From positions 62,001 through 126,000 of the forward strand of contig QPGO01000124.1 of assembly GCA_008632985.1 (NCBI GenBank): a stretch of DNA of 64,000 bases, written 5' to 3'. The notes under the pieces are model-generated. The model saw nothing but the letters and a program-made list of their open reading frames with translations. It did not search any database and was not told where the DNA came from. Every line of letters begins with the position of its first letter. Positions within the stretch are counted from its first letter, which is position 1. Made by a program: the position numbers and the translations under genes. Origin of the DNA: Psammoneis japonica (taxonomy: Eukaryota). This document shows positions 16,031-44,371 of the stretch, piece by piece.

Positions 16031-19000
16031 GGTTGATTTGGCTGTCGCTTAGCGAAGGCTGTGGAGGGAGTTGGAAGCTCGGCCTTGACACTTTTTTTTT
16101 TCTCACGACGTTGACGACCGCCAAGGTCCATTTGGGCAACGAGGTTGATTTTTCTAAAAAAATAGCACCTACGTGATTTCTACGGCGTCCCCACCCATAG
16201 CAGCACAATGGCGTGTTTTCACGGCGCCGCACTACGCCGTTACGACAAAGATTTGGCTCACGACAAGTTGGGAATGTGTTATATATAATACGACGTATGT
16301 GACCATTGCTTGAAATGTTGCCATATGGTTGACAACCATCACGAGTAGCGCAGTCAACAATGATGTGCTCTGCCGGTGTGATTGAAGGTCCACATTTCTG
16401 CTTGCACGCCACATTGCTTCAATCGAAGTTGTTGCAGCTCGGTTTGAGCGATACATTGTCGAGTAAAATCTTTAGTCATTGACGAACTCAAGCTCAATTC
16501 ATTGTTGATGCCTTTGTTTGGCTTGTGGCAGCAAGCACTTGTCATTGAATGCACTGTCTGTTTTGAGTTGATTGTCTCAACTAGATCAAGGAGTTCCTGA
16601 TGGTGGATGTGAGGCGGCAATGGAGGATCTGCTGAGTTCCCATCAGTTGGCCTCCTCCTGCCGGCATGTGTTCGTCCTTTTAGGTGCAATCTTTTGATCC
16701 GACTGATTGTTTCTTCTTGTGTTTTGTTTTCGCACAGTTGGCCCTCATGCGCACCTCACAAGACTTCTTCCCCGCGGACTTCACTCCTCCCTCTTATGCT
16801 GGACTGTTCATCCGTTTGGCATGGCATTGCTCCGGATCCTGCCGCAACTCCAACGGTCGTGGCGGATGCGACGGTGGTCGCATTCGCTTCGACCCCGAGT
16901 TAACGTGGGAAGATGACGCAAACCTCAATCAAGCTCTCAAGCTCCTCGAACCCATTGAGGAGGAGTGCGGATCAACTCTTTCATGGGGCGACCTCATCAT
17001 TCTATCTGGCAACGCTGCCTTTCAGTCCACTGGGGCAACTCTGCTTGGTTTCTGTGGGGGGCGCATCGATGACGAAAATGGCAATGCCAGTTTGACTCTT
17101 GGACCGTCTGCGGAACAAGAGGCTGTGGGTCCCTGCCAGAACTTGTCGCCGTCCCGCCAGGGCGTTTGTCTGAGTGTAGACGACACGGCTCTAGGGCCCA
17201 CCACTGTGGGGTTGATCTGCGTCAACCCAGAAGGTCCAATGGGAGCCAAGGGAGATGCTGCTGCCAGTGCTGCAGACACTCGCCAAGCCTTCGGTCGCAT
17301 GGGATTTAGCGACAGTGAGACTGTGTCGCTTGTCGGTGGAGGCCACGCCATTGGCAAGTGTCATGGTGCATGTGCCGAGCCGCCCTGTGGAGCAGGAACT
17401 CCTGCCAAGGGCATTGGCAACAACACCTTTGCATCTGGTTTCGAGGGTGCATGGTCTACAACCCCTGCGACGTTTTCGAATCAACACTTCAACAACCTTT
17501 TTGATTTTGAATGGAGGCAGACGACGTCGCCACCAGGCAATCTGCAGTGGGAACCTTTCAACAGCGACGGTTCGCCAGGACCCGACATCATCATGTTGAC
17601 TGCCGATCTTGCGTTGACTGCCGATGATTCCTGCCGCACCATCGCCGAGAACTGTGCTGGCAATCAGTCCGCCTTGGACGAGGCCTTTGTGGCTTCGTGG
17701 CATCGCCTCACCACCGCAGACATGGGCCCGGCAACCCGTTGTCTGGGAAGTGTGGCACCCGATCCACAGCCATTTCAGAGGACATTGCCGCCCATGCCGG
17801 AAACCCTTCCAGACTGCGTTTGTCTCCGCTCCATGATTCAAGATGTCATTGACGACCATGACACTGTCTCTGACAAGTTCATCAACCTCGCATGTCGTTG
17901 TGCCTTCACGTTCCACTCCACAGATTGCCAGGGTGGATGCAATGGAGCCCGTGTTCGTTTTTCTCCAGAATCCGACTGGCCTGAGAATGAACTTCGGAAG
18001 CACTGGCGTCATTGGCGCCTGTCAATGAAATGCATCCGGAGGTTTCCTGCGCTGATTTGATTGCACTTGCTGCGCTTGCCTCCCTTGAAGATGAAAACGG
18101 AGATGTTGGATTGACGTTCTGTGGCGGATGCGTAGATGCCGAAAATGCCGATGGCAGTGAAGCCTTGGCGCCACGCCTCTACGATTTCACGCCACCAGAT
18201 GGACATGTTTTTAATCCCTGCGTCGTGGCGGTTCGTGACGACTTCCAGGTGAAGGGATTGTCGGCGAAGCAGGGCGTGGCTCTCGCGGCGCGCGAAAACC
18301 TCTCCAGTCAGCACTTCAAGGACCTGACGGCCGCATGTTCATCCGACTCAGATGACTTTTCAGACATTGAAAAGGCGCTTTGCTTGGATGAATTTGGACC
18401 CATTGTGGAGGAATTTTCAAATGACGAGGCTGCACTCAAAGAAAACTTTGTCTCTGGTTGGACCTGCATGATGACGGCTGACCGCTTCAAGAACAACGCT
18501 GAAATCTCCTGCGATGGTGTCGACACCCCCACGAAAGAGGACACTGGGACGACTCCATCACCCACGAGTGTGCCCTCAGGCGCTGCTGCTGCATCTGTTG
18601 CCATGACGTTCCTCTTTGGCATCATTGTTGCCGTGATGGAGTAAGGTTTTAACCTTTTTTGTTTGAAATTGGGTCTTTCCTGCTTAACCGACAGTTTGTT
18701 TGTGGACCATTCTTCATGAGATCATCCAACGTCAAACGTGAGATCATGCAACATTAGTTGTTTCTTTTGAATGAAACAAATTTTATGAACCTGTAGAATC
18801 AATCATGGCTTTGTGATGATGTTTTAGTTCACCCTGCGCTCTGCGCTAGAGCAGCTGTCTCTAGAAGCAGCCTGATGTCACAAGGTGTGCCTTGTGTTGC
18901 TGTGAAACCTTGCTCTGCAACCGCAAACAACAAGCCCACTTTTTTTGTTGTTGAGTGCAAGCATGTTGTCCACGCAACCTTTCACCATGTGTCTCCTTGT

Positions 19001-20542
19001 CACAACACCAAGAAACATTCTTTGCTGTCTTTACAACTCTCTTCAACAGGTCAGTGTGACTCATCTTCCTGCTCATGTGCTGCATGTCTCAGAGCTCAAG
19101 TGCCTGCTGCTTGATGTCTTTTCTTAAAATGAACAGTGATCATGTGCCGATGCTTTTGGCATGTGTCATGAATTTGTCCTCAGCAGACTCAACACTGATT
19201 GCATGACAGCACATTCGGTGCAGCAAATCCAGCACATGCGGAGCACCCACTGGAAAGCATCACAAGCAAACATTTTGTGCTGACATGCAAACATTCAACT
19301 TGTGCAAATCTTTAACATTTTTGGCAAAAATCATCCGTTGCATTGCAGCTCATTTTGCCCCAATGAAAAACATTGATGGCAAAAAACAACAACATTGCAG
19401 TGCTGCTGTGGGTCTTGCCATTGTTGCAAAATGTTGAGATTTGGATGTGTCCATGCTTTTGGCAGTGAAAACTTGGTCACAAGTCAGAGACCATGCAAAA
19501 GTTGCGCAAATGTCATTTGCATGCATGGCTTGATTCATGCACAGCTGGAACATGCCAGCTGCTTGCCTTTTCAAGTCAGCTTGCATGGAGCCCCTCTGCT
19601 CCATGAGTGGCTCCTTTTGGTGGTGCCACTCCCCTCCAGTCCATTGATGCTGCACAGAAGCATGGTGGCACAACATTTGCACAGGTGGCTGCAACCCAAG
19701 AGTGAAAAGTGTGGGAGATTTGCTCTGCTCATTGACATGGTGTGGGGTCGGAGGTCACACACACCTCTGGTGATGCAGAGACAACCTCCAGATGCAACCA
19801 GTTGATTGACATGTGGGTGGGCTTGTTTTTGTGTGTGTGGTGTGCACCACACTGAGCTCAAAGCCTGCCACCAGACCAAGAGTCTTGGTGTCAAATCAGC
19901 TGATCTGCAAGCAACAAAGGGGGCGCAATCATCACACATGTGTCCACAGACACTGCACATGTGTGTGGAGTTTGACGTGCTTTGTTTCTGTGGCACTTTT
20001 GTTGTTCAAAGCCATTTGTCAGCCAGCCCGGGGACCTTCAATCTTCAACTGAGAATGGGAGTTGCTTGTGCATGTGTTGGGCAGTGAGAGGTGAGTGCAT
20101 TGGTGTCTGAAGCATTGGCAGAAAACAACCTGTGGTCTGTGGTGCTGCAAGATGATGCCACAGAAGTGAAATGATTCAGGGCACAATGCAGCGGTGCAAG
20201 TCCAAGTGGAGTGCAGCGTTGTCCAGGCACTGCGCGCATGACAACAAGCTAGAACAATGGCACCATGGGTTGCACCTCTGCCGGCACAGGTGCTCTGGAG
20301 AGAGGGTGGGAGAGAGTCGTGCTCTCCTTGCAAAGGAGCCAACAAGGACGCGATGCTGATGATTCTGATCAACATCGATGGGGCGCAACTTCAAATCTGA
20401 CGGAGAAAATGCCAAAAACGATGCTCATGATCCTGTTCTGCATCCATTTTCCCAGTCACAAGATTTCTTTTACTGACGGAAAAGGACTCATCAGCAGTTG
20501 TTGCAAGATCTTTGGGTTGAAGAAAAAATGCAGCCGTCTTCA

Positions 20543-20938
20543 GACGTGTTCCAGCTCTAGGTGGGACCTCGTCCTACTGAACTGTGACACAATTATTTTT
20601 TATCATCCGTCGTATGTTTCGCACGTACATTTCTACGTGTTCCATTATAAAAAATTGTTCCACACTGCCTGTTTTGCGAAGCCAAAGGCTTTCTGTTATC
20701 TGCACTTATGTCAATAAAAATGCGCTGGGTATATTCTTTAATGTCTAAAGAACATACCCGGGCATACTGTAAAGAATGTACTTCAAGTGTGGAGGAGGAG
20801 ATGCGTTCGCAAAATTGCCTCTTTTTCTGTTGGCGATCATTCATATATCCATTGCTTAATAATTTTACTACGGAGCTCGCACGTAGAATTCTACGGGCCA
20901 AATGTCACAAAAAGTCCCACCTAGGACTGGAACCCGTC
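20543..20938. mobile_element. MITE family M1 (~390 bp, ~25-bp TIR starting GAC, 4-bp TSD), unmutated copy
   Basis: TIRs gacgtgttccagctctaggtgggac / gtcccacctaggactggaacccgtc and TSD ttca. The empty site is present in copy B at ~45905-45915. Confidence 0.85.
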
Positions 20939-20939
20939 T

Positions 20940-23550
20940 TCAACTGTTGGCTGCTGGCTGAAGCGCATTGTCAGCTGCGCCATCGCCTTGCTGCCTGTCT
21001 TCCGTCTGGCTGCTCAAGACAATGGGCATTGGAGGACTCTCGCAAATCAATTGCATGTCATTGGAGAGCTCACAAGCAAAAAGTTGCAAAGTGGCTTCGC
21101 TGGTGAGAATTGCGACCAATTTGTTGCCAGCTCTCTCTGTGCTTGATGATGACCTTGCATTCCACACAGTTCAAGTCAGGGTGTGCATTCGAGAGACAAA
21201 AGGCTCCAAACGAAAGCCACTCCCAAGGATGATTCTTGATGTGCTGTTCCACCGCAGCTGCAAACGCCTTGACCTTGTCCTTGTCCACGTCAATTGTGAA
21301 TCGAGTGACAAAATTCAGCAATGCCTGAGGGGAGCTGTTGTGGTTGATGATTCGAGAACCAGCCACAGCGAGCCGTTGGAGCATGTCGCTTCCTCGTTGG
21401 TCGTGCCAAAGTCCACGGTTGTCTTGCAGAGATCCAAGTCCTTCACAATCCATCCCAAGGAACCTGAGCCACTTACATTGTTCTGGACATCAGACACTGC
21501 CACACAATCCCCCATGTCGAAAGGCTTTTGGACTGGCGCGAAAAGAAGACCTTCAAAGTGCTTGGACGACACTCTGCCTGTCATGAACGCAAAGCCCACG
21601 ATGAAGCCTGCAATGCTCCCAAACAAGGCCGCCTGGTCAACACCAAGCATGCCCAGAACAATCCAACCCAAGACAAAGTGGGGCGCAATGTCCACCAATC
21701 TCTGAGAAGTGGCATTCATCCTGCTGTTTGCATTGAGGATCGATGCGTGGATGATGCGGAGCTCCTTGTGCATGGCATCAATCAACTTGATGAATTCAAG
21801 CATGGTCAATGCTCCGTCTTGTGTTGGACAAAAAATGCAAATCAGCTCCTTCAATTTCTGTTCGTCCAACTTGCCATCCTTTTTCAATGCCACCACTGCA
21901 AGAGTGTCAAACTTGATGAGTCCATCATGACCATCACTTGCATCCAAACAAAGAAATGATTTCTGTGATGAACCAACGCATGATTCCTGTTTGTCTGCAG
22001 CTCCAAAGTAGATCAAGAATGGGCAGTCATTGTCAACACATGTCACCGTGGTGCAAAACTGCACAATGGTGCTGATGGGCACAACGTCAATTTTTGCTGA
22101 TCAATGTTTGGTTCTTCCTGTTTGCCAAGAAGGTCTACAATCTTGACCCTTTGGCTGTGAGACAAACCACTTGAGCAAACATTGTTTGGATCGGTTTGAA
22201 ACAAGAAATGCAAAGATGAAACGCCATCATCATTGTCGTTGCTGTTGTCATCATCGTTGTCTTTTCCAAACTTCTTGAAATTCAACCAAAATGCTGTGCT
22301 TTCAATGCGGCGTTCTCATCCTTGGCAAGAGCCGCAACCTTGCCTGCAAGCACAGCCTTGTTTGTGATGCTTGCAAGATCTTTTCCATGCTGCCAATGCA
22401 CTCCAGTTCCATGGTGAAGGCTGCAAAAGAAGCGCTTCAGGCAGACAGACCCGCCAATCACCACAGCACTCACTGGAATCCTCTCCCACGATTGAGCATT
22501 TGTCACGTCGCCCAAGCTGTTGTTTTCATTGAACACTTCCATTGTCTTTTGGCAAAACAGCCAATGATTGGCAAATCAAGAGTTGCCGCAAAGCATGGCA
22601 AAAAATTGCAGGCAGCCCACGCCATTCTGAACATGAAAAAAGAAATGAGGAGACAGAATCCAATGTCAGAAGAACCAAAACACAACAGTGTGCCTTGTCG
22701 TTTCCTGCAGCAAATGGCAACTCTCTGTGTTGTGCACATCACTGCTTGCAGTTGAAACAGCCAACCTTTGAACTGAACAAGAATCAACGTGTTGAAGGAG
22801 CCCACCACATTTATGAAAAAGGGCGTTGAAATGCACAAAAAGTCAACAAGAACAACTTTGGTGGCCTTGGCCAAGGTCAGGGTGAGAAGATTTCGAACCA
22901 CCACAAAATTGATCCACCACGACACAGTTGCACCACTCGAGCCCATGGGGTTGCCCCACGCATGATGAAAGAGCACAGCAAAAGCAAGGCCCAGAAGAAT
23001 CAAATGGAGCAGAGTCAACTTGAGATGCAACCACAAGGAGTCCTGACGAAATGCAAGAAACCTTCTGATTTGCAAACTGAAGTGAGCAACCTTGGAGGAC
23101 ATTTTCTTCAACCTCACAGCATTGTCCACAAAAAGATCTGCCTGTGTTTTGAAATGATGCTTCTTTGTCTCTTCTTGTTTCTCATCTTGATTTGCTTGCG
23201 GTTCAGTCAGTTTGTCTTCTTCTTCAACAGCAGACATGGCATCACCATTGTGATTGTTTTGTCCTCCACCACCTTGGTTCATCATGGCATTGGTCAAGAA
23301 GCAAAGAGAATCCTCCACGGTTGAATTCTTTGTTTCTTCCGCTGTTGAGTTTCGGAGCGACGGTTGTTGAGGCATGCCAGCAAGGATGCCGGTCGAAACC
23401 CTGCCCTTTTCTTCATCATAATTTTGCTCCAAAGACTCAAAGACACGCGTTTCAAAAACATCTTCTCGAGGACCAAAGTCCAACACATCTTGCACAGCAA
23501 TGCCAGCGGTGGGGCTCTTGGGAAGATCATTTCATTTTGACGTGGTTCCC
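20940..23550 (-). pseudogene. MscS-family mechanosensitive channel with EF-hand-like motif, copy A, hypermutated
   Basis: Collinear with 45911-48476 but carries frameshifts, Y->H/C and R->C/W/Q changes, and an intron donor gtaagt->gcaagc at ~22749. Confidence 0.9.
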
Positions 23551-25070: not shown

Positions 25071-25460
25071 GACGCGTTCCAGCCCCAGGTGGGACTCCGT
25101 GTGACATTGGGCCCGCAGAATTCTGTGTGCGAGCTCCGCAGTGCGAGAATTTAATCAATGGACACATTTGTCTTCAACATCAAACAAACGGCCAAGTTTG
25201 TGGTGCAATTATGCCTCTCACCACTCGACGTTTTTGCAAATGCACCTGCCCCATGCAATTCTCAAGACATTGTAGAATCACGCTGTGACAAAAAATGTCA
25301 AAAGTTTTTGGACGGATCGCTCAACAAGTGTGCTGTAAAATGACACAAAATGTCAAAAAAATCATGTAGAAATCTGCGTGCACGACATGCGACGTGATTC
25401 AAAAAACTGTCGATGTCACCGTTCAGCAGTGCGAGGTCCCACCTGGACCTGGAACGTGTC
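25071..25460. mobile_element. MITE family M1, TpA-depleted copy, opposite orientation to the 20543 copy
   Basis: TIRs gacgcgttccagccccaggtgggac / gtcccacctggacctggaacgtgtc and TSD aaga (25067-25070, 25461-25464). Confidence 0.85.
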
Positions 25461-25649
25461 AAGACGAGATTGGAAAAGATGGAGGGATGGGGGAGCAGAC
25501 TGTCCTGAGATCCTTCAATTGCACGTTTTTCATTTTGCAGTTTCGCGCATGGTCATTCTCAACCGGTCGTCATTTTTTGCGAGCGACGGTTGGTGGCAAG
25601 ACGAGTGACATCCCATCGATTTGTTCACGCTGCCGCTGCACAGCGACGT

Positions 25650-26000
25650 GAACCCAGCTGAATGAAACAAGAGCTTTGTGTGGCAGGTGCACCACAAAGC
25701 ATGGTTTGACATCACAGTGTGCCAAGCACCATGCAAAGAGCTGTGCTGCTTCCTTTCCTTGATGTTTTGTTTCTGCTGTGCCCAGCTGCACATGCGAAAG
25801 AAGGTCTTGAATCACGTCGAGCCTGGCTCGGGTTGGTCTAACTGCGAATGTTGCCAGGGCTGCTTCGGTGGGTGCTGCTGCCTTCAGCTGGGTAGCATGG
25901 GCGAGTCGTCATGCCCTTGCCCCTGCATGTGCCTGGAGTCATGTATTTGCCCTGGGGCAGCTGGAAGTGCTACCTCTATGGTGATTCGTGAGCGACACAT
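25650..26000 (+). pseudogene. PLAC8-like Cys-rich protein fragment, 3'-truncated and TpA-mutated
   Basis: QAPCKELCCFLSLMFCFCCAQLHMRKKVLNHVEPGSGWSNCECCQGCFGGCCC...GESSCPCPCMCLESCICPG...VIRERH resembles algal PLAC8 proteins, with C/H where Tyr is expected. Similarity stops at ~26000. Confidence 0.6.
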
Positions 26001-28676: not shown

Positions 28677-30482
28677 TGTTAGAAATTGAAGGGAAATGGC
28701 AAGAATTCAAACAATGGCTCCTTGCTGCTGTCTAAACAGCAGATGAGTCTCTGCTCAGAGACCGTTGCAGGAGCCGAAAGATGTGTGAGTCGGTGTGATC
28801 GGGCTGCTGTTGTTGTTCTTGTGAGCCTTGTGGCTCAAAAGCAAACTGCATCACGCGCGAATGCGCAGAACTGAAGCACACAAAACTGTGCGCGGCAAAC
28901 TAAACAGCGCGCGACATTTCGCGCGCACCCAAATCCTGTTCAAATCCTGTCACTCCCCAGTTTGCTTGAGGAGCCACAGAAACAGATTCGACTTCGGATG
29001 GAATGAAGTTCCAGAACATGAGGGGGTGGAGAAGGTCCCAGATTTGGGAGCAACCCCAATGCTTGCTGAGAATGTCAGCAGGGTTGCGGGAGCCTTCGAT
29101 GAAGTGGAACTCAAGGCAACCAGAGACAATTGCCTCACGCACACGGTGGAACGACAGTGCGGTGTGTCGCTTGTGTAACTTGGAGTGCGGGATGGTGGCA
29201 CTGTCTACAACCGACTTGTTGTCACCGAACATGCAACTGACATTACGGATCGGGACGCCAAGGTGGCGCAGGGTGATGCGCAGGTTGACAATCTGCTTGA
29301 CACAAGTCCTTGCGGCAACAAATTCAGACCTGCAGGTCGCAGTCTCCATGGTGGCTTGCTTCTCAGAGAACCAATCAGCCGGGAATTTGTTGAGGAAGTG
29401 GAGCATTCCCATGACAGAGCGTCCGGTGAGCATGCAATGGCACAAGTTTGCATCGACGTAGTGGGTGGCAGTGACGAACTTGCCAAGGGGCGGTGGAGCA
29501 TCCTTCGGGATCATCTCTTCTGCTTCGCCGCACACGGAATGCATCCATTCATGGGCCGGAGCAGGGAGATCCGAACAGTCGGGCTCTTCCGTGCGAACGC
29601 GGAGAGCGCCGTGTCGCATCTTGGAGAGACACCCACAGACACGTTTGGCACGATCCAAGTGGCCTTGACGGGGCACAGCTCGGAAGCTAGAGAGTGACAT
29701 GACAGCCGTGGTGATGTCAATTCGACCAAGGGACACTGCCCATTGGAGTGAACCAACAAGAGACTGGAACTTGTGAATGCCATCGGGCCCCAGCAGTTCG
29801 GAAGTGTCCAGTTTGGGGTGGTCACCCTTCTCCAGAGGTGACAGGGCGTTGGTGGTGGGTTTCTCCCCAAACAATCGGGTGCAGCTGTCGACCATGCGCT
29901 CGATGCACTTGCGCAGAGACAGGCACAAGGTGCCGTCGGGATCCCGGGAAAAGTTGCAGCCCAGATGGAACTCAATGGGTCCCGCACCCTTGAGCTTGAA
30001 CTTGCACTTTTCCGTGAGAGCATCGACGAAAGATTGAGGGTCCTTCACAGCAATGGCAAGGTCATCCACATGGACGGCAACGTGTTCACAGTGGTCGCCG
30101 TTCCTGCGCACCCAAATGTTGGGTTCGGCGCGGCAGGGGAAGAAGCCTTCAGCTCGCAGGCAGTCAGTGAAGCGCTCGTGCCAGCAGAGACCGGAGCTGC
30201 GCAGTCCACACAGGGCCTTGTGGATGACAAGGATGTGTCCTTCGAGTTTGCCAAATTCGGGTCCGGCCACAATGTAGAGCTTCTCCTTGGTGGTGGCTTC
30301 AAGGCAGGCATTGCCAATGTCGGTGGCCCATGTCTCCAACTCGTTGAGTTCGGCCAGGAAAATCATCAGCCAAAGGCCACGGAGGGAGACTACTCCGGAG
30401 TAGACACTGTCGATGGGTACGTCCGTGAGGTGCCCATCGGCTACGAGAGTTGTGCCTTGTGGCGACCGTCGTGTTTCACGTC
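28677..30482 (-). mobile_element. 5'-truncated Ty1/Copia copy (RT-RNase H plus 3' LTR 28677-28952), same family as 33024-39700, inverted
   Basis: ORF 28900..30549 is nearly identical to the C-terminus of 34717..39477, and PPT plus 276-bp LTR are present. Homology stops abruptly at ~30482. The RT motif reads HVDD. Confidence 0.93.
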
Positions 30483-33023
30483 CACGACGCTTTTGGGCCA
30501 CGTCCGCGCGGCCATCGCTGTGATTTTCGACAAAACGCTCATAACCCATAAAATCAATTTTTCTTCATCCAAAACGCAGACACGCGACGCAACTCAAGTC
30601 GACCATGGGATCGGTTGCGGCGGCGGCAATATTTAACACCAAGTGTAAGAAACACCTGGAGAGTATGTTAAAACCTCATTATGATGATAAGGTAAGGGTG
30701 ATAAAGCAAGGCATCTTCATTTGATGCCTTTAATCGTCATCTGAACTTTTCACTCAATTTCTTTGTTTCTTCTGCATCCGACACGACAGCAAATGTTTTG
30801 AAGGTGTAAAGTGGAAGGTATTAGGCAGGTACCCATGACTTGGACGATATATTCGATAAAGATGACATAGAAAGGCACAAGTTCTTTCTTTGGCAGTGTT
30901 TTCCGTTTCAAAAACAAAAGCAAGCGCGGAAATCCTTGCTCACAACGATCATTTGCAACATTCAAATCGACTCAATGTCTACGTTATTCCATCCAAATGA
31001 TTCATCAACGGCTAAAACACCACCCTCTATGTCTAAATGAGACGATCCTGGGCAGTTATCAGTTGTCAAAAATTTATGAGAGTTCCTGAGGAGCCGCAAG
31101 CAGTTGGACCTCGGATCCTTTGAACATGCCAGCTCCAACCAAATCGATTCGGAGCACGGCTTAAATTGTTCATATTGTCTGCAAAGAGGCGTTTTGAAGC
31201 GGTATATATTTCTAAGATCGGGATCAAACTGTAGAAAATGCTGCCAGTGATAGGTAAATGACGACAGCTGGCCGGAACCCATTTGTCGGACACCATTTTC
31301 ATCATTTTGTACAGCATGCACGGAACGATGCGCAGTTTGTCAATAATGTAGATTGAAGGCTTTAAAATAGTGCAGGAAGCATCTAACACATAGAAGGACA
31401 TTAAATATGAGCAATAGCAAGAGTCAACAAACACAATTAGTGACATTGAAGCCCGAAAGTAGGATTGATCCGGAACTTGGTGTGAGCAGGTGGTTCTCTC
31501 TGCAAGGCTCCAAGCGCTAGAAATCACTACTGCAATGATGAGAATAGAATTGTCAATGAGTAATTTTGACAAAAGTGGTATAGACTAGTGCTGTTAATGG
31601 CTAATTATGACTAGGAGCTACATGCCACGACCTCGAGGAGATGCACATGCCACGGCAGATTGAACTGGCAGACCCCAGCATGCCGAGAAAACACTCGTAT
31701 CAATGTCTATTCTCTGCTGAGCATAGTTACAGTTCGATCTTGAAGGTTTGAGGGTCTCGGCAAAGCCCCTTTGAGGGACAAACAAGGTTTACAACTGTGC
31801 TTTGCATCGATTTGGCTGCAGGTGCTAGATTCGCAGAAGTCTGAGTCCACCTGCTTGCGGGCCCTCACGTCCTTGAATTGCTCTTTTGTTACCTTGTCTT
31901 GCCCATAGTAGCTTCCTTTATTACATGAAGGGGCTCTCTAATTCCTTGAACAACCCCTCCTCATGAATTTCTTGGCATTCTGAGTCGATCAGGCGGTTGC
32001 AATAGGAAAAGGCGACGGATGCACTTGTGGATGAGCTCTTGTTTTCAGCTCAGCATCACCTCCCACAACAGTCAGGATATTTTCTCCTTCATCTCGATCA
32101 TAAATATCGACGAATGAACGTTATCTTATGCCGTACCTTCAATGTTGAACCTTGAGAACGTCGCCTGAAGTTGTCGGAAGCAGCGACATCGGGTGAAACA
32201 AGTGGGCGGCAGCAAAAGTCTTTTTTTCGCTCTGTAAGTCCCAAGATTCGCAATGTTTTTACATAGAACGACAGACATGTAAGTAAATGATGAGATACAA
32301 TTGAAACATTGCGAATGTTGACCCAAGAACGCAAGCAGTAACGTTCTTACCGATGAACGGCGACTCACCATTTTCGTTCCGTAACTTTTACGCATTTTTT
32401 GTACTGTGAATTGTGGGAGGCAGATCTGAATTTCGGCCCAAAAAAAAGAAGGAAGGAGCGGCTTTTCAGTACTGCCGTAGAATCTACGTGCAAGATGACG
32501 TCACAGTACAAAATGCCATTTCTACGCAGCGGTGGCCGCTCCGCGAGCGTCGTGCATCAATCGCGCGATTTTGATGATTACAGTCCTACGGCACACGGTA
32601 CGTCGCGGTCGCATCTTTGATCTCAACCGGTCATTTTTTGGACGGACAATGGCAAGACTCCCGACATTCCATCGTGCCGTGCTTGCACCCACACACTGCG
32701 TGTGCGCCAGTCCATTGTTTACAAAATCACCAACATGGACTGACCTAAACAAAGCTGTGATGTAGAGAGAAAGTTGGGGTGCCAGACTGACACCGACCTT
32801 GCTGGTTGCAGAGCGTTCCATGAAAAAGAGAGACTGCTTTTTTTCTTGTTTTTGCCCCCCCCCCCCCCACTGGCTCCAATCCCAGGTCGGACTCTGTGTG
32901 ACATTGGGCCCGTAGAATTCCACGTGTGAGCTCTGTGGCAAATGTTTTAAGCAATGAAAATGTGGATGATTGCCAACAGAAAAAGAGGCAATTTTACGAA
33001 CGCATCTCCTCCTTCACACTTGC

Positions 33024-34240: not shown

Positions 34241-37200
34241 ATGGTTCTCACTCGTCAGCAACAAACCGATGGTTTCGAGCACGTTGTTGGAACCGTGCTT
34301 GCCCAAGGTGCTGGGAGTCCTCTTCGTTTGGCTTTGGCCCAAGACGGCACGGACTCGCATCAGGAACTGTTCACGTTCATGCCGTCCCAAATCGACTCGC
34401 TTGAGTGCGACAACGGCACTGATGCAATCCCTTTGCCCCGTGGTTATAAGAACATGTTAGCAGCACTAGTTAGCCTGTACATTGTCAAAGCACACAAAGG
34501 TCTTGACGTTGCCAATGACTCCTCTTTGTTCACGCATGACGAGTTCCTTGCCTGCCGCCTCAGCCCGGACTGCATGTCCTCTCTGTCCATCGGCAGCTCA
34601 CCCCTTGCACCTCCACATGTCACCAACCCAACCAAGGCACGCGACCCGGTGCGAGACTTCAAGCGAGGCATCAAGCGTGATCCCACCGCTTTCACGGCTC
34701 TCAAATCCGACAAGCAGTGGCACACTTGGCACACCTCACTTGTGGCACAAGCCCGTGCCCAAGACGTCGCTCCTTGTCTGAGTGCGCGCTTGCCTCCACC
34801 CGTGCATCTGTCGAGTCCTCCACCCTGCTCACGCACCTCACCACCGCACGTCTTGGTGATGGCACTTGGAAAGGTCCGACCCACGGGTTCATCCTTCATT
34901 GGCAAGATCAGTTGCGCAAGTGCGAGGCACTCATCCCCGCCAGTGACCACTTCTCTGAAGGACAGAAGCGCGTCATGCTCGAGAATGCCGTGCACCCTGT
35001 CGAGGAACTCCGTGCTGTCAAGAACCAAGCTGATCAGCATCGTACGCAGAGTGGCAAGAGCCTCACATGCAATCAATGCTGTGGCTTGCTCCTCTCTGCG
35101 GCAGCTCAGTGCGACAGCACGTTTCAACCCAAGACGACACCTCGAGCTCCCCGACGCACCACACACGCACACGACGTCTGCTCCGAGGAACCGTCCAACG
35201 ATGTGTTCTACGACATTGACAGCGACGTTGACGTCCTTCAAGCCAATGCTGCCTGCACCCGCGGTCCCAGCCTCACCGGTGTCCAATGGAGACGTCTCCC
35301 TCCCGACCACCAACGGCTCTGGGATTCGTTGCCCGATTCCTCCAAGGCGATCATCCTTGAGCACTCTCGTCCGCCTCCCCGCAACCCGAGAGCCAGCAAC
35401 TGCCATGAGTCCGTTACGGCCAACCTTCACGACCAACACCTTGGGAGTGACGGTGATGTCAACTTGTCCAACACGACTCCTGCTGACTGTGGTGACTCCG
35501 CTGCACATGTGGATGCCACTTCGGATGATCCCATCCTGGCGCACCTCACCAAGCGCAAGCCACTGCCACCCGGTGATCTGCAACGTCTGTTGTCACCTAA
35601 CCAAGCCCCCAATGCCAGTCGACCAGGGCCATCCGCCGCTTCCTCTACCCCGCCAGCTCCTGCAGATGACATGGAACTTAACGGCCGCACTTGCCGCCGC
35701 GTTGACAACCACAATGTCATTTGCTCTGCCTCTGCTCATCGCTCCACACGCACTGGCGCTCTAGTCGATCGTGGGGCCAACGGCGGCATTGCTGGCGACG
35801 ACGTTCGCGTCATTGCACGCACCTCTCGCCAAGTCGACGTTCAGGGCATTGATGATCATCAATTGGTGGACATCCCCATTGTCACCGCTGGTGCCGTCAT
35901 TGAGACCCAGCGTGGTCCCGTCATCGCCATCCTCCATCAGTGTGCATGCACGGGAAAGGGCAAGACCATCCATTCCTGCGGCCAGCTCGAATGGCACAAA
36001 CAGGATGTCAACGATCGCTCTGTCAAGGTGCCCAACGGCTTGCAACGTGTTGCCACTCCTGATGGCTATGTCATCCCCATTGACATCAAGGCTGGCCTGC
36101 CTCATGTTGCCATGCGACCTTACACTGACGCCGAATGGGACACCCTGCCCCATGTCATCCTCACCGGTGATGACACATGGGACCCTTCCGTCCTCGATCA
36201 CTCTGTCACTGACGACGACCAGTGGTACGACGCGATCTCTGACCTGCAGGACGATCCCACTGCCAACCTATTTGACGAATGCGGCAACTACCGTCACCGT
36301 GTCGTTGTCAACGAGACCATCTTGTCCGCTTCCTTGTCTGCCGATCACGCATCCGCCCTCGATGATCACCTCATTCCGAACAACGACGTGTTCTACGAGT
36401 GTCATCTGCATGCGATTGACCCCAATGGCGATGACGTTCCACCTCCGGAGCGCACTGTACAGCCCAAGGACCCCCCCTTCGAGTCTCTTCGGCCTTGCTT
36501 TGGCTTCCTACCTGTCGATGCGGTCCGTCGCACTTTTGACTGCACCACGCAGTACGCCCGCATGCCCGCCGGTACACACCTTCGCAAGGCCTGCAAATCA
36601 CCCAACCCCGCCCTTGATGTGCACCGCCGCAACGAGCCTGTCGCCACTGACACCGTTTACGCCGACACCCCGGCCGTCGACTCCGGTTGCACCAGCGCCC
36701 AACTGTTTGTTGGCACCGAGTCTACCGTCACCGACGTCTACGGCACTAAGACGGACAAAGAGTTTGTCAACACACTCGAGGATCAGATCCGTGAACGTGG
36801 TGCCCCATCCAAACTCATTAGCGACCGTGCTCAAGTTGAGATCAGCAACAAAGTGCTCGGGATCCTACGCGCCCTCTTCATCTCCAGCTGGCAAAGTGAG
36901 CCTCACCAGCAACACCAAAACTTTGCCGAGCATCGACACCAGACCGTGAAGCGCATGGCGAACACTGTCATGGACCGTTTTGGTTCGCCCGCCCACACAT
37001 GGCTGCTGGCGCTCATGTGCGTGTGCTTCACACTCAACCACACAGCGTCCCCACGTCTCCACTGGCGCACGCCCCTCGAGACTCTCACTGGATCCACCCC
37101 GGACATCAGCCCATTGCTTCGCTTTCACTGGTGGGAACCAGTGTACTTCCACCTCGATGACTCCGATTGGCCGTCCGAATCCCGTGAGTTGCGTGGACGT

Positions 37201-39477
37201 ACCTTCCTCATGCAGCCACAAGAGGACGGACAACGCCACAGAGCTTGCATCGTCAAGGCCGTCGAAGACCACGAATGGAAAGTGAACGGCAATCCCGAGC
37301 TCACTAAGTTCGTCTGCTCTGTCAACAATGACGAACATGAGGAAGTCCTTGCCTGCAATGACATCATGAATCACATTGAGCAAGAAGACGAAGACACCAC
37401 CATTTGGAAATTTCGACGCATCGCATCACACGAAGGACCTCTGAAGCCTCACGACCCAACCTGGAAAGGCTCAAGCTACAACATCATGCTTGAATGGGAA
37501 AGTGGGGAGATCACGTCCGAGCCTCTTGCCATCATCGCCAAGGACGACCCCGTCACCTGTGCCATCTATGCACGAGAGAATGGACTCCTCGACACGGATG
37601 GCTGGAAGCGGTTCCGCACTATCGCGAGGCGCCAAAAGAAGCTATTTCGCATGGCCAACCAAGCCAAGCTTCGCTCCTTCCGCACTGCACCTCGCTACAA
37701 GTGCGGATGCGAAGTTCCCCGGAACTACAAACACGCCATGTCACCAGACGAACGCAACGGCAACCGCAAGTGGGGAGACGCAACTAATCTCGAGATGGAC
37801 CAACTCGACGAATACGAAGTCTTCCATGACTGCGGGCCCTTCAAGTCTTCCACTCCTCCTGCGGGACACAAGAAGATCCGAGTGCACCTGGTGTACGACG
37901 TGAAACACGACGGTCGCCACAAGGCACGACTCGTAGCCGACGGGCACCTCACGGACGTACCCATTGACAGTGTCTACTCCGGAGCAGTCTCCCTCCGTGG
38001 CCTTCGGCTGATGATTTTCCTGGCCGAACTCAACGAGCTGGAGACATGGGCCACCGACATTGGCAATGCCTGCCTTGAAGCCACCACCAAGGAGAAGCTT
38101 TACATTGTAGCTGGACCCGAATTTGGCAAACTCGAAGGACACATCCTTGTCATCCACAAGGCACTGTATGGACTGCGCAGCTCCGGTCTCCGCTGGCACG
38201 AGTGCTTCGCCGACTGCCTGCGAGCTGAAGGCTTCTTCCCCTGCCGCGCCGAACCCGACATTTGGATGCGCAGGAACGGCGACCACTGTGAATACATTGC
38301 CGTTTATGTGGATGACCTCGCCATTGCCATGAAGGACCCCCAATCTTTCGTCGACACTCTCACGGAAAAGTGCAAGTTCAAGCTCAAGGGTGCGGGACCC
38401 ATTGAGTTCCATCTGGGTTGCGATTTTTCCCGGGACCCCGACGGAACCTTGTGCCTGTCTCCGCGCAAGTACATCGAGCGCATGGTCGACAGCTGCGCCC
38501 GACTGTTTGGGGAGAAACCTGCCACCAATGCCCTGTCACCTCTAGAGAAGGGTGACCACCCCGAACTGGACACTTCCAAACTGCTGGGACCCGATGGCAT
38601 TCACAAGTTCCAGTCTCTTGTTGGTTCACTCCAATGGGCAGTGTCCCTTGGTCGAATTGACATTGCCACGGCTGTCATGTCACTCTCTAGCTTCCGAGCT
38701 GCGCCCCGTCAAGGCCACTTGGATCGTGCCAAACGCGTGTGTGGGCACCTCTCCAAGATGCGACACGGTGCTCTCCGCGTTCGCACGGAAGAGCCTGACT
38801 GTTCGGATCTCCCTGCTCCGGCCCATGAATGGATGCATTCCGTGTATGGTGAAGCAGAAGAGATGATCCCGAAGGACGCTCCACCGCCCCTTGGCAAGTT
38901 CGTCACTGCCACCCACTACGTCGATGCAAACTTGCACCATTGCATGCTCACCGGACACTCTGTCATGGGAATGCTCCACTTCCTCAACAAATTCCCGGCT
39001 GATTGGTTCTCCAAGAAACAAGCCACCGTGGAGACTGCAACCTACGGATCTGAATTTGTTGCCGCAAGGAATTGTGTTGAGCAGATTATCGACCTGCGCA
39101 TCACCCTGCGCTGCCTTGGCGTCCCGATCCGTAATGTTAGTTACATGTTCGGTGACAACAAGTCGGTTGTAGACAATGCCACCATCCCGCACTCCAAGTT
39201 ACACAAGCGACACACCGCACTGTCGTTCCACCGTGTGCGTGAGGCAATTGCCTCTGGTTACCTTGAGTTCCACTTCATCGAAGGCTCCCGCAACCCTGCT
39301 GACATTCTCAGCAAGCATTGGGGTTGCTCCCAAATCTGGGACCTTCTCCGCCCCCTCATGTTCTGGAACTTCATTCCATCCGAAGTCGAATCTGTTTCTG
39401 TAGCTCCTCAAGCAAACTGGGGAGTGACAGGATTTGAACAGGATTTGGATGCGCGCGAAGTATCGTGCGCTGTTTAG
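34241..39477 (+). pseudogene. Copia gag-pol polyprotein, defective
   Basis: gag starts MVLTRQQ with FKRGIKRD; protease LVDRGANGG; integrase VATDTVY...ISDRAQ...SEPHQQHQNFAE; RT YVDD; RNase H YVDAN...SEF...DNKS...NPADI. Frame break at ~34770, apparent in-frame deletion at ~37198, many Y->C/H. Confidence 0.93.
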
Positions 39478-39700
39478 TTTACCGCGCACAGTTTTGTGTG
39501 CTTTAGTTCTGCGCGTTCACGCGCGATGTAGTTTGCTTTCGAGCCACAAGGCTCACAAGAACAATGACAGTAGCCCGATTATACCGACTTACACGTCTTT
39601 CGGCTCCTGCAACGGTCTCTGAGCGGAGACTCATCTGCCATTTAGACAGCAGTAAGGAGTTGTTGTTTGAATTCTTGCCATTTGCCTTCAATTTCTGTCA
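39425..39700 (+). repeat. Copia 3' LTR
   Basis: Aligns without gaps to 33024-33299. Confidence 0.97.
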
Positions 39701-42099
39701 CTTGCAGTGCATCAGCTGCAGTTTGCACGGGCATGTTCTGCAGATGTTGATGCGCCAATCGCATGAGATGCCCGTTTGTGGCCCATGTGTGAGCCGCAAT
39801 TTTTTTCAAATCTTCAATGACAGAGACAATCGATTGAGCAGACCCCACAGTCGAATTCTCCACACCCCCACGAAAACATGGGAATCGACACTTCATCTGT
39901 TCAAAAAGTCCCGCTGGTTGTTCTGGTGGCCTCTAAAATGTGTTTGCATTTTTGCACAATTTTTTTGCCGATTTCTCCCTCCACCATAAATGACAACGAG
40001 ATGAGCATCGTTTTGAGAATTCTGGCCAATTTGCGGCCCACATGTGGGTCGCAAAAATTTGCGATGAGAATTTTGTGGCCCAGATGCGGGCTGCAAAATC
40101 ACGCGTTAGGCGTCTGATGCAATTGGTGTTAAAGAATGTACCCAGCATCTTTTCATTGTCACAAATGTTGAAAATAGAAAGCCTTTGGCTTTGCAAAATG
40201 GGAAGCATGGGACAATTTCGTAAAATGTCACACACGCAGCCATCTGGGTGGGCAACATGCGGCACGATCCAAAAATCTGTTGATGTCACAGCTCAGCAGT
40301 GCAAGGTCCCACCTGTGCTTGCCCCTGCTGCCACAGAGCTGTTTGCAGAAACCCTGAGCAAAAAAATTGAAAGAGCAAATGAGTGCTGCCTTTCACATTG
40401 TCCAGTGACAATTGTTGTCCACTGATGCTGCGCTGGTGTGATGAGGAGACATCTGTCTGCCAGCTCAAAACAACACAGCCAGGTGGGTGTGGTGACACAC
40501 ACACAGCAGCGGGGTGATGTGGTGCCGACCCATGTGAAAATCACGCAGAGGGGTTGTTTGTTCTTGAGTTGCTCCACACCCACACCAGACAAACCCAAAG
40601 ACATCCCAAGAACCCCCGCCCCCTGGCAATGTGGAGCTGACCTCCACTCCTGACTGCAAAAGAAGGGTGTTTGGAAAGAAGAAGAGTCTGTGAACACAGC
40701 CAGTTGGTTGATGCCACAGGTGCGGGCACTTTCCATGGCTTTTGTGTTTTTGTGCAGTGTGGGAGACTCAAAGGCTGTCAGACAAAGTCACAGCAAAACT
40801 GGCCAATCAGCGACAAGCAGTGTGCAGAGGCTGCAATGATTGCACTGCCACATGTTGTGTCTGCCGCATGCACCGCAAGTGTGTTGGAACATCCAAACCA
40901 TGGAAAACATGAACAGCCGCATTGAAGAAAAGATGCTGTGGATCCTGACACAGTTTCACCATCACCAACCTGTGAACCTTCAGTTTTGTCTTGCTCTTTG
41001 GAGTGAATGATTTGGTTTGTTTGGTTTGTTGCTTGGCACAGCCAGGCACCCCTTGTTGTCTCACAAATTTGAAGTTTGTGCTGACAACTTCTTGGCAACC
41101 CATGGCCGCCGCAATTGACTGGCCAAGGCAAGTGTGTCAAGTGACACAGGAAGCCCAACAAAGCTCCCTTTTGGCACCATGCTGGCTCAACATGAGCATG
41201 TCAGCAGGATCAGCATTGAAAAATCAGGGGGGAAGCACACCAATGCAATCAAGCGCAGCTCATTGAAATTTTGCCTTGACAGCTCTCCACCTTGCAGCCA
41301 CAATTCCACACAAATTCTTCACTGCAAGCACCAGTGGATGAAAGCATCAACAGGGCTTTTCAAGGGAGGCAAAAAGAGGTGTTTGTCATGATCATTTTCT
41401 CTGCCCTTTTGAGGCCACACACTTTTCTTCTCTTTCACAACAAACCCATCAGCTGTGATGCTGCTCGCTGAAATGCCATTTGTGCTGCCCACCCATGCTG
41501 TCGTGCAGCTTCTTAAACTCTCCACCCATGATTTTTTGCTTTGCAATGCTCTGCCCACAGATCTGCTGGCATCCATTGATTGTGAGCACCAGAGCCTGTG
41601 GTGTGGTGTGGATTGCAGCACCAAAACCTGAGGAATTTCAAGAAGCTGCGAAGAAAACGCATTTTTCATTTTTCTTGCTCTTCACGTCGGCATCAATCAC
41701 TCTACACAGCACTTTTCAGCAGCAAAGTGCCCGTGCAGGATTGAGCTTCTGTAAAAAACTGCACACCAAGGTCGTGCATCGGTTGAAGCTGCTTGGATGC
41801 AGAACAGTGCATCTTCAAGATCTGCCGGAAGAAAGCTGGGAAGACACAATGCACCAAGGAAGAAGGAAATTAATGGACCGCCAGAGCAGATTGAGTCACA
41901 ACTGTCATCTTGTCATCATTTGTGAACGAGCTGTGCCATGAGAATGTAAGTGCTGATGCTCCTTAGAAGAATGGGATTGCTCGCATGAGTGTCGTTGTCA
42001 AGGTCTTGCTTTTTGTCAATTGAGCTCGAAGAGCCTTTCACGTTTTGCTCACTGTTTGCTCCGTGTCTTGTCCTTCTTCATCCTCCTCTTCATTCATTT

Positions 42100-44371
42100 T
42101 CGTCAATTTCAGAATTGCGCTTGCCTTTGCCTTGCAATTTGCAAGTGTCTTGGCCACCGATTGCCCTTTTCTGAAGAAACAGAAGGAAGATGTTGTCAAG
42201 AACACTGCTCATGTTGTCAACCAGAAAAATCACAAGCTCAACCTGCCGTTGTCCGAGCGTGCGGGAGATCAAGGAGTTCCTGACGGTGGACATGAGGCGG
42301 TGATGCAGGATCTGGTGAGTTCCCATCAGTCAGCCTCCTCCTGCCGGCATGTGTTCGTCCTCTCAGGCGCAGTCTTTGTTCCGAATGGTTGTTTCTTCTC
42401 GTGTTTTGTTTTCGTGTGGTTGGCCCTCATGAGCACATCACAAGACTTCTTCCCACGGACTTCACTCCTCCCTCTTGTGCTGGACTGTTCATCCGTCTAG
42501 CATGGCGCTTCTCCGGATCCCACTGCGACTCCGACGGTCGTGGCGGGTGCAATGGCGGTCGCATTTGCTTCGACCCCGAGTTGACGTGGGAAGACAACGC
42601 AAACCTCAATCAAGCTCTCAAGCTCCTCGAACCCATTGAGGAGGAGTGCGGATCAACTCTTTCATGGAGCGACCTCATCATTCTATCCGGCAATGCTGCC
42701 TTTCAGTCCACTGGGGCAACTCTGCTTGGCTTCTGTGGGGGGCGCATCAATGACGACAATGGCGATGCCAGTTTGACTCTTGGACCGTCTACGGAACAAG
42801 AGGCTGTGGGTCCCTGCCAGAACTTGTCGCCGTCCCGTCAGGGCGTTTGTCTGAGTGCAGACGACACAGCTCTAGGGCCTGCCACTGTGGGGCTGATTTA
42901 CGTCAACCCAGAAGGTCCAATGGGAGCCAAGGGAGACATTGCTGCCAGTGCTGCAGACATTCGCCAAGCCTTCGGTCGCATGGGATTTAGCGACAGTGAG
43001 ACCATGTTGCTTGTCGGTGGAGGCCACACCATTGGAAAGTGTCATGGCGCATGTGCCGAACCGCCCTGTGGAGCAGGAACTCCTGCCGAGGGTGTTGGCA
43101 ACAACACCTTTGCATCTGGTTTCGAGGGTGCATGGTCTACAACCCCTGCGACATTTTCGAATCAATGCTTCAACAACCTTTTTAATTTTGAATGGAGGCA
43201 GACAACGTCGCCACCAGGCAATCTGCAGTGGGAACCTTTCAACAGTGACGGTTCGCCAGGACCCGACATCATCATGTTGACTGCCGATCTTGCGTTGACT
43301 GCCAATGATTCCCACCGCACCATTGCCAAGAACTGTGCTGGCAATCAGTCCGCCTTGGACGAGGCCTTTGCGGCTTCGTGGCATTGCCTCACGACCGCAG
43401 ACATGGGCCCGGCGACACGTTGTCTGGGAAGCATGGCACCCGATCCACAGCCATTTCAGAGGACATTGCCACCCATGCCGGAAACCCTTCCAGACTACGT
43501 TCAACCCCGCTCCATGATTCAAGACATCATTGACGATGATGACACTGTCTCTGACAAGTTCATCAACCTCGCATGTCATTGTGCCTTCACGTTCCGCTCT
43601 GCAGATTGCCAGGGTGGATGCAATGGAGCCTGCATTCGTTTTTCTCCAGAATCCGACTGGCCTGAGAACGAAGGAACTTTGGAAGCACTGGCGTCATTGG
43701 CGCCTGTCAATGAAATGCATCCGGAGGTTTCCTGCTCTGATTTGATCGCACTTGCTGCGCTTGCCTCCCTTGAAGATGAAAACGGAGATGTTGGATTGAC
43801 GTTCTGTGGCAGATGCGTAGATGCCGAAAATGCTGATGGCAGTGAAGCCTTGGCGCCATGCCTCTACAATTTCACGCCACCAGATGGATGTGTTTTTAAT
43901 CCCTGCGTCGTGATGGTTCGTGACGACTTCCAGGTGAAGGGATTCTCGGCGAAGCAGGGCGTGGCTCTCGCTGCACGCAAAAACCTCTCCAGTCAGCACT
44001 TCAAGGACCTGATGGCCGCATGTTCATCTGACTCAGATGACTTTTCAGACATTGAAAAGGCACTTTGCTTGGATGAATTTGGACCCATTGTGGAGGAATT
44101 TTCAAATGACGAGGCTGCACTCAAAGAACACTTTGTCTCTGCTTGGACCTGCATGATGACGGCTGACCGCTTCAAAAACAACGCTGAAATCTGCTGCGAT
44201 GGTGTCGACACCCCCACGAAAGAGGACACTGGGATGACTCCATCGCCCACGAGTGCGCCCTCAGGCGCCGCTGCTGCATCCATTGCCATGACGTCCCTCA
44301 TTGGCATCATTGTTGCCGTGATGGTGCAAGGTTTTCACCTTTCTTTGTTTGAAATTGGGTCTTTCATCTAA
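42100..44371 (+). pseudogene. katG: Catalase-peroxidase (KatG-type), copy B, disrupted
   Basis: Signal-peptide exon, intron 42315-42419 with acceptor reading tgg, a 1-nt deletion at ~42453, distal His lost (RLAWR), LIYVNPEG retained, and stop TAA->CAA at 44327 giving read-through. Confidence 0.88.

Follow-up and report, generated by a model that had tools for sequence, protein, structure and literature searches.

A window of 64,000 nucleotides from the diatom Psammoneis japonica (contig QPGO01000124.1 of assembly GCA_008632985.1, positions 62,001 to 126,000 of the forward strand; coordinates below count from its first letter) was found to hold two copies of a catalase-peroxidase (KatG)-like gene, in both of which Tyr codons have been turned into Cys or His codons by changes of the dinucleotide TpA to TpG or CpA. 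Both belong to a segmental duplication that also carries two copies of an MscS-like channel gene, one saturated with the same changes and the other spared. The best explanation, which we regard as reasonably probable, is a TpA-specific hypermutation targeted to silenced DNA flanked by transposable elements (TEs), in which the state of the locus, and not the presence of a homologous partner, decides what is struck. The analysis establishes the pattern of substitution, with its polarity, symmetry between strands and arrangement in blocks. It further establishes that the process acted after the duplication and after TEs had integrated, and that the spliced gene copy was spared.

The extent of the duplication was traced by blastn self-comparison, which matched 16583-18884 with 42266-44526 at 90.6% identity, with a gapped continuation to 23568 and 48492; upstream matches joined 13032-13588 to 41693-42266 (86% identity) and 9394-10637 to 40315-41598. 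As outlined by these matches, the duplicated unit is at least 8 kb long and comprises a TE-derived upstream stretch, the KatG-like gene on the plus strand, an intergenic stretch and the convergent MscS-like gene on the minus strand. Introns and intergenic DNA were copied along with both genes. In copy A of the KatG-like gene, the first part of exon 1 (13427-13588) encodes a signal-peptide-like stretch, up to ...LSERTG, that matches exon 1 of copy B and the N-terminal consensus of the homologues; it is followed by the end of exon 1 (16583-16631), a 106-nt intron (16632-16737) whose 5′ site is now CTGAGT and whose 3′ CACAG is kept, and exon 2 (16738-18644; Pfam peroxidase, E 4e-41). Copy B consists of exon 1 (42105-42314), a 105-nt intron (42315-42419) that has kept GTGAGT at its 5′ end and lost AG at its 3′ end (TGTGG), and exon 2 (42420-44371; Pfam peroxidase, E 2.2e-51). 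The intron is of phase 0 in both copies and was placed by sequence comparison alone, that is, by the alignment of the DNA of the two copies and by the homologue consensus that spans the gap. Because both copies keep exon 1 and the intron, the KatG-like gene is a host gene that was copied as DNA.

Both copies are dead. Copy A is so because of a 3-kb insertion in exon 1, the altered 5′ splice site and a 4-nt deletion relative to copy B, which shifts the frame near 17988 and leaves exon 2 as two open reading frames (ORFs) in different frames. Copy B is dead because the AG of its 3′ splice site is lost and 1 nt is deleted at about 42451; its frame is thereby shifted with respect to copy A and the homologues, and the shift is masked, the new frame having no downstream stop. 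The His of the AWH motif, which we take to be the distal catalytic His of KatG, is now Arg in copy B. No in-frame ATG was found within 25 codons upstream of the signal-peptide-like stretch of either copy. The gene encodes two tandem class-I peroxidase domains: the Pfam peroxidase model matched two stretches of copy B, and the C-terminal half of the homologues also aligned to the N-terminal half of the KatG-like gene. The KatG models TIGR00198 and PRK15061 were matched with E values of 1e-92 to 1e-105, yet under their curated whole-protein cut-offs (770 and 981 bits), with scores of 308-343 bits for copy B, 320-354 for copy A and 410-474 for an intact homologue (P0004), which likewise fell short. 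Since even the intact homologue scored below the cut-offs, the gene is labelled KatG-like and not KatG; on these scores we assign it to a KatG-related eukaryotic clade.

The Tyr positions were examined in an alignment with the best 44 of 2639 homologue hits (among the 120 matches listed). Fourteen columns with at least 50% Tyr and one GG[Y/F] column were considered, and exclusion of a column in which both copies have Phe left 14 informative ones. The sequence-only reading of this DNA had quoted 16 peptide strings, and all 16 are present in copy A (16605-18209) and copy B (42288-43894). It had further proposed that five reciprocal pairs, with Cys in one copy and His in the other, reconstruct an ancestral Tyr. 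Four of these pairs sit in Tyr columns, namely SGS[C/H] (37 Y and 6 F among homologues), NQ[H/C]F (39 Y, 5 F), DS[C/H]R (39 Y, 5 F) and GG[C/H]EA (19 Y, 18 F, 1 W), the last encoded with Cys at the end of exon 1 in copy A and with His in exon 1 of copy B, the ancestral residue being Tyr; the fifth, DG[H/C]V, sits in a lineage-specific insertion, outside the homologue columns. Its one-sided cases also fall in Tyr columns: PSYAG (39/40), LIYVN (44/44) and PDYV (28/44). Its choice of Tyr rather than Arg as the ancestral residue agrees with the homologues, none of which has Cys, His or Arg in the four reciprocal-pair columns. Over all 15 columns Arg was found in none, Cys in one homologue (in the both-Phe column) and His in two columns (7/44 and 1/44).

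Because four sites are reciprocal Cys/His pairs, the hits must have been independent and must postdate the duplication, and these four together with the three one-sided Tyr sites bear out the earlier claim that both copies were mutated separately. Cys or His stands at 12 of the 14 informative sites in copy A and at 11 in copy B; ten sites were hit in both copies (six with the same outcome, four reciprocal), three in one copy, and one is intact in both. The claim that the copies were mutated at the same sites is right in that ten sites are shared, but independent hits would be expected to give 9.4, so that the overlap reflects saturation and not site-specific targeting. Given 17 Cys to 6 His, doubly hit sites should agree in outcome in a fraction of 0.61 of cases, and the 6/10 observed fits full independence. 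In columns with at least 80% agreement, Tyr was kept at 2/8 positions in each copy, compared with 214/244 (copy A) and 204/245 (copy B) for other residues (Fisher p = 1.3e-4 and 6.4e-4), and 12/12 replacements of Tyr in these columns were Cys or His.

Base composition also sets both copies apart. The ratio of observed to expected TA dinucleotides (TA O/E) was 0.11 in exon 2 of copy A and 0.13 in exon 2 of copy B, with a CG O/E of 0.75-0.83 in the copies and 0.12-0.47 in their flanks. In KatG-like metagenome genes (n=47, taken from 65 loci after 18 with short matches were dropped) TA O/E ranged from 0.23 to 0.93 with a median of 0.57, and every one lay above both copies. One of these loci (L065) was considered as a second hypermutated KatG, given its TA O/E of 0.25 and TG/CA of 1.74, and was rejected, being a multi-intron gene with its Tyr residues kept; its stretch 299-2670 has 65% GC and a TG O/E of about 1.8-2.2, a differing compositional habit. 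Between the two window copies, 81 of 110 mismatches were of the TA/CG to TG/CA class, leaving 29 others in 1790 nt. Sixteen of these 29 were at codon position 3 (p = 0.013), which suggests a period of purifying selection on both copies after the duplication, followed by their rapid destruction; gene conversion between them is an alternative explanation for this excess. Reciprocal TG/CA pairs numbered 19 in the KatG part and 26 in the upstream match of 9394-10637 with 40315-41598.

Contigs of run X1 showed the letters of copy A at 29 of 32 checked listed places; X1 is perhaps the source sample and is thus not independent. The possibility that the X1 contigs that differ from copy B represent a third KatG copy was rejected on this count. 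At the remaining three places, two had letters absent from both window copies and one fell in a gap of copy A. The foreign letters, on a copy-A-like X1 contig, were at 43189 and 43192 (copy B coordinates), with CG at 43189 against TG in both copies, and may represent allelic variation or a further copy. The summed contig depth over KatG copy B was about 60-140, against about 57-69 for a single contig, and such depth does not equal copy number.

The MscS-like twins differ sharply in their fate. Copy A (20955-23501, minus strand, intron retained) is a saturated pseudogene with a TA O/E of 0.03 and a CG O/E of 0.49, whereas copy B (45914-48428, minus strand, with an 89-nt intron at 47586-47674) has an open main exon, is spliced and was spared, with values of 0.41 and 1.02. 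Copy B, whose 570-codon ORF contains the MS_channel_2nd domain, is 56% identical to a diatom transcript; the homologues named to organism were all from diatoms, with a best identity of 56%. In a protein alignment to the homologue P0124, copy A matched in four pieces at 35-47% identity and the main piece of copy B at 56%. Of the 70 TA of copy B, only 4 were kept in copy A, where 31 have become CA and 29 TG, so that 60 of 66 changed sites went to TG or CA; 49 of the 141 CG of copy B were kept. Nineteen of 20 Tyr codons were changed in copy A, 11 to Cys and 8 to His. In the MscS part, TA losses numbered 58 in copy A and 1 in copy B (binomial p = 2e-16), and CG losses 85 and 10. Ten reciprocal TG/CA pairs in this part were considered as hits on copy B and rejected, because by our estimate an ordinary transition of CA to TA followed by TA to TG, both within copy A, would yield about the observed number.

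In a contig of run X2, position 47585 is directly followed by 47675; the 89 nt skipped are bounded by GT..AG on the minus strand, and no other letters occur over 2745 nt. Spliced mRNA of MscS copy B must therefore have existed, on either reading of the contig, as cDNA or as a DNA copy lacking the intron. The same run gave zero cover over KatG copy B and was not used as evidence of KatG expression. Codon phase 3-1 is a position at which T to C never alters the amino acid; there TA stood at 0.35-0.65 of expectation in the four host-like ORFs (0.35 in MscS copy B), compared with 0.07-0.11 in the KatG copies, and the intron region of MscS copy B retains TA where copy A shows TG or CA. Because TA persists at synonymous positions and in the intron, selection cannot account for the sparing of copy B. 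This sparing holds to within 500 bp of either end of the copy, even though copy A is saturated. A metagenome scan with the MscS copy B protein returned 170 pattern matches and no relatives, and no syntenic outgroup locus.

The substitution class was defined from four polarised pairs of homologous sequences. Among 166 TA in the less mutated members, the partner had CA at 65, TG at 60, TA still at 19 and another dinucleotide at 22, so that 125 of 147 changed sites went to TG or CA. Both strands were hit equally, as the counts of 65 CA and 60 TG indicate. An A before a pyrimidine was hit at 87/195 strand-sites and before a purine at 38/137 (p = 0.002), which suggests a mild preference for A followed by a pyrimidine, in a test in which the two strands of one site compete. 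Such a preference may be why Cys outnumbers His at Tyr codons (28:14, p = 0.04). As a comparator, the long terminal repeats (LTRs) of a Gypsy-type element (58498-58934 and its blastn self-match partner 63364-63800) have 37 mismatches, every one a transition of the TA/CG to TG/CA class, and 0 transversions. Since the two LTRs, identical at integration, differ by that class alone, resident DNA was targeted, at a rate far above background. TA disappeared faster than CG (94% versus 65% lost in MscS copy A), and we read the two losses as separate processes in one territory.

Hypermutated DNA forms discrete blocks. The whole window has a TA O/E of 0.28 with TG at 1.49 and CA at 1.46, and CG, at 0.73, is mildly depleted; per 500-bp bin, TA O/E ranges from 0.00 to 0.91, in blocks with sharp edges. 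Over 128 bins, TA O/E correlated with CG O/E (Spearman 0.70) and inversely with TG/CA O/E (Spearman -0.81), and the lowest CG O/E in depleted blocks was 0.00-0.2. Windows of 500 bp with TA below 0.1 and TG/CA above 1.6 numbered 56/255 here versus 1/770 in comparison windows of the same size from the 65 metagenome KatG-like loci, and the single qualifying comparison window came from a GC-rich, multi-intron gene with its Tyr residues kept. The intergenic part of the duplication is among the depleted blocks: in duplicate A (18645-20553, matching 44751-45913 at 79-82% identity) TA O/E is 0.00-0.26 and CG O/E 0.12-0.56, and in duplicate B (44372-45913) TA O/E is 0.03-0.14 up to 45500. At about 44873-45314, between KatG copy B and MscS copy B, the summed depth of X1 contigs was 479-847 against about 60-140 nearby, with many loose ends; this stretch is probably a high-copy repeat, although depth does not equal copy number. 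Host-like, expressed-looking ORFs of the window have a TA O/E of 0.41-0.64. Stop-to-stop frames of at least 80 codons overlapping the 29 kb of the finding numbered 136 and occurred in all six frames, because TAA and TAG stops have been lost.

These data would be accounted for by the following course of events. A segmental duplication of at least 8 kb, at the DNA level, copied the KatG-like and MscS-like genes with the TE-derived upstream stretch. Discrete blocks of both loci were then struck by a fast and strictly context-bound process that changes the A of 5′-TpA-3′, on either strand, to G, and so turns TpA into TpG or CpA. The slower decay of CpG to TpG or CpA that marks the same blocks is taken as a footprint of cytosine methylation and hence of silencing. 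The KatG-like copies lie inside such blocks, flanked by older and more decayed TE sequence, and each was hit independently to near saturation, which is why Tyr was replaced by Cys or His at mostly the same places in both. A late capture of the KatG-like gene by a silenced domain, with silencing presumably spreading from the TE flanks, would fit the stronger CpG decay of the flanks compared with the copies. The mechanism is most likely a TpA-specific A-to-G conversion in the DNA of silenced blocks, probably through enzymatic deamination of adenine to hypoxanthine in DNA by a putative enzyme. Because MscS copy A is saturated and its twin spared, the state of being hit or spared would belong to the locus and not to the pair, and three further homologous pairs are likewise one-sided in TA loss (22:1, 26:2 and 20:0).

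The sequence-only reading was correct that the process is not confined to transposons, host-derived genes having been reached. It had seen in the mutation of both KatG copies the hallmark of a homology-triggered system of the kind of repeat-induced point mutation (RIP), and the MscS twins, born of the same duplication, do not support this; a duplicate without TpA loss, which it had named as contrary evidence, is found in MscS copy B. Its own alternative, spreading from adjacent TEs or methylated DNA, appears the better fit, as inferred from CpG decay, a feature of the sequence only.

Several observations weigh against targeting by silenced state. The silenced or methylated state of the blocks is presumed from their CpG decay, and the deaminating enzyme is putative. 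The link to methylation is loose: at 17501-18000, TA O/E is 0.00 with a CG O/E of 0.86. Every hypermutated block of established identity is either repeated in the window or within the duplication. In addition, two insertions lie untouched within hypermutated DNA, contrary to simple ongoing regional spreading. The first, 3 kb long, interrupts exon 1 of KatG copy A (13589-16582) and is absent from copy B at the junction; its TA O/E is 0.55-0.91 and its CG O/E about 1, between flanks with a TA O/E of 0.07-0.15. It contains methionine-synthase-like fragments (by Pfam, the end of S-methyl_trans, E 6.8e-7, and the start of Pterin_bind, E 6e-4), as well as tandem repeats of about 170-195 nt in its interior and inverted arms of 47 nt (13838-13884 and 16158-16204); no target-site duplication was evident at its junctions. 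It may be a DNA element carrying gene fragments that arrived after the hypermutation. The second is a 347-bp element present in duplicate A only (20554-20900), with a normal 28 TA. Its inverted homologue beyond MscS copy B (49064-49418) has 0 TA, and TA in the first faces TG or CA in the second 20 times and the reverse 0 times; one fresh and one saturated copy of this repeat thus lie inside 29 kb. Either such insertions are very young or the process is episodic.

The strongest competitor, which we nevertheless consider unlikely, is a RIP-like defence in which duplicated DNA is sensed and TpA mutated in both copies, so that KatG would have been hit since it was duplicated. It would explain why both copies of KatG, of the upstream blocks and of the intergenic blocks were independently hit after the duplication, why both LTRs of one element were hit, and why all identified hypermutated blocks are repeated or duplicated; moreover, many diatoms encode DNMT4, a relative of the RID protein of fungal RIP, as a passage of PMC9998398 states. 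It does not explain the 58 TA losses against 1 in MscS twins that were born together, and the synonymous and intronic TA kept by MscS copy B indicate that its escape was not by selection. The three other one-sided pairs speak against it too, as does the repeated element at 20554-20900, untouched despite its homologue in the window. Finally, the hypermutated viral insertion of the rhizarian alga Bigelowiella natans discussed below is single-copy, according to the text of its preprint (bioRxiv 10.64898/2026.01.13.699255).

We give far less credence to an untargeted, genome-wide loss of TA and CG in which selection alone preserves genes and the KatG copies are merely old pseudogenes. The lowish TA O/E of the expressed-looking ORFs and the phase 3-1 TA of MscS copy B would agree with it. 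However, a rate like that of the LTR pair, with 37 changes of the class and 0 others, would erase synonymous and intronic TA from genes, where it persists; non-coding DNA at 13589-16582 has a near-normal TA content between blocks that are depleted; and the KatG copies, with only 29 other-class mismatches in 1790 nt of which 16 are at codon position 3, are not old neutral sequence. RNA-level A-to-I editing followed by reverse transcription and reinsertion is close to refuted. The T-before-A preference is akin to that of ADAR and of fungal mRNA editing (a likeness also taken up in the discussion of the B. natans preprint), but introns are kept in both genes, the duplication includes intergenic DNA and two convergent genes, the strands are equally hit, and two LTRs of one inserted element diverged after integration. 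A sequencing or assembly artefact is scarcely credible: some long-read base callers do err systematically at methylated motifs, yet the two copies show opposite outcomes (TG versus CA) at identical local contexts, the changes follow codon and homologue structure, and the X1 contigs, perhaps from the source sample and so not independent, repeat the copy A letters at 29 of 32 places.

The closest known system is that of B. natans. Of the 231 mutations that mutation-accumulation lines showed in two viral insertions, 230 were A-to-G or T-to-C changes, all at TpA; the larger viral insertion is single-copy and transcriptionally silent, behaviour between lines was episodic, and an ADAT2-like deaminase was proposed as the candidate enzyme, as given in the text of the preprint (Mettrop et al., bioRxiv 10.64898/2026.01.13.699255). 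As in the diatom window, the changes described there are almost only TpA to TpG or CpA, affect both strands, fall in discrete regions and arise at a rate that exceeds the background by orders of magnitude. The two cases differ in host, B. natans being a rhizarian and the present one a diatom, that is, a stramenopile, and in targets, which according to that text are giant-virus and virophage insertions there and here are LTR retrotransposons, other repeats and three host-derived gene copies. They also differ in that CpG decay accompanies TA loss here, with no such report in the Results and Discussion of the preprint, and in that the mutations there were measured de novo and are here historical substitutions only. 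In our full-text literature searches the signature was not reported for diatoms, and the sole match found was this 2026 preprint; PMC9258296, considered for diatom hypermutation, was set aside as its matching passages are on immune receptors and epiphytic diatoms.

Like fungal RIP in Neurospora and others, the present process consists of dense, context-bound transitions that inactivate repeated or duplicated DNA, caught genes included, and that leave a dinucleotide signature. RIP, however, turns C:G into T:A, for the most part CpA into TpA, and so creates TpA and stops, whereas here TpA is destroyed and TAA and TAG are lost. RIP is also homology-dependent and hits both partners, a rule that fails here within one duplication, where the KatG twins were hit and one MscS twin was spared. 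In repeat-rich fungal genomes, RIP leaks from repeats into adjacent single-copy genes. The mutation of host genes embedded in repeat-rich, silenced DNA along with the repeats would be similar, with spreading presumed here, but chemistry and lineage differ. Decay of 5-methylcytosine in methylated transposons resembles the loss of CpG to TpG or CpA in the same blocks, but covers the CpG part only, as TA loss is faster and sometimes complete where CpG is intact. Passages of PMC9998398 indicate that DNMT4 of diatoms is related to the RIP protein RID and that methylation of diatom TEs depends on DNMT5. Restriction by ADAR (A to G) and APOBEC (C to T) in animals is likewise a hypermutation by base deamination serving defence. 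According to the discussion of the B. natans preprint (bioRxiv 10.64898/2026.01.13.699255), ADAR prefers U before the edited A. These enzymes act on RNA or single-stranded replication intermediates with a strand bias, whereas both strands of chromosomal DNA, introns and intergenic DNA included, were changed equally here.

Other features of the window were identified with Pfam. Copia-type elements lie at 34681-39477 and 28900-30564. The frame at 34681-39477 is open over 1598 codons at a TA O/E of 0.27, and a truncated, inverted Copia copy (28681-30482) has been mutated more heavily than the full one, with 22 TA losses against 1. Open frames are no sign of function here, because the process strips TAA and TAG. 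The Gypsy-type element (Pfam match at 58722-62174) has RVT_1, RNase H and integrase domains in an internal ORF; its interior is a mosaic within one 1151-codon frame, depleted at 58501-61000 (TA O/E 0.15-0.27) and normal at 61001-62000 (0.56-0.86). Host-like genes comprise a Na/Ca exchanger with EF hands, a sulfotransferase and the MscS-like channel. Three members of one unclassified repeat family, at 3723-4898, 11444-12616 and 54925-56096, share 69-74% identity; two are saturated and one far less so (38 TA versus 8), and the pair 3723-4898 and 11444-12616 shows 55 reciprocal TG/CA pairs.

Context-specific hypermutation of A:T to G:C in resident DNA had, as far as our search found, one prior report, the 2026 preprint on a rhizarian alga, and the same signature is now seen in a diatom, a member of a group of major marine primary producers. 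The window provides a natural experiment that is missing from the preprint: a spliced MscS copy is untouched, its twin is saturated and both neighbouring KatG copies are destroyed. This contrast allows duplication and silencing to be told apart as triggers, and the polarised data that it yields on rate, context and strand are clean. The window also exposes an annotation hazard: because the process removes TAA and TAG stops, dead sequence has long open stretches in all six frames, such as a 691-codon "ORF" in a frameshifted pseudogene, and gene finders will be misled. More tentatively, and with slightly less than even confidence, we propose that diatoms and Bigelowiella share an enzyme system, guided by chromatin or small RNA, that edits the adenine of TpA in silenced DNA, as an old defence across the SAR group (stramenopiles, alveolates and Rhizaria). 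Silencing would be made irreversible through the loss of Tyr codons, of start and splice signals and of promoter TA steps, and host genes that land in a silenced block after duplication would be destroyed with the transposons. If the system is indeed shared, its occurrence in a stramenopile as well as in a rhizarian would suggest an ancient SAR genome defence with a chemistry opposite to that of fungal RIP.

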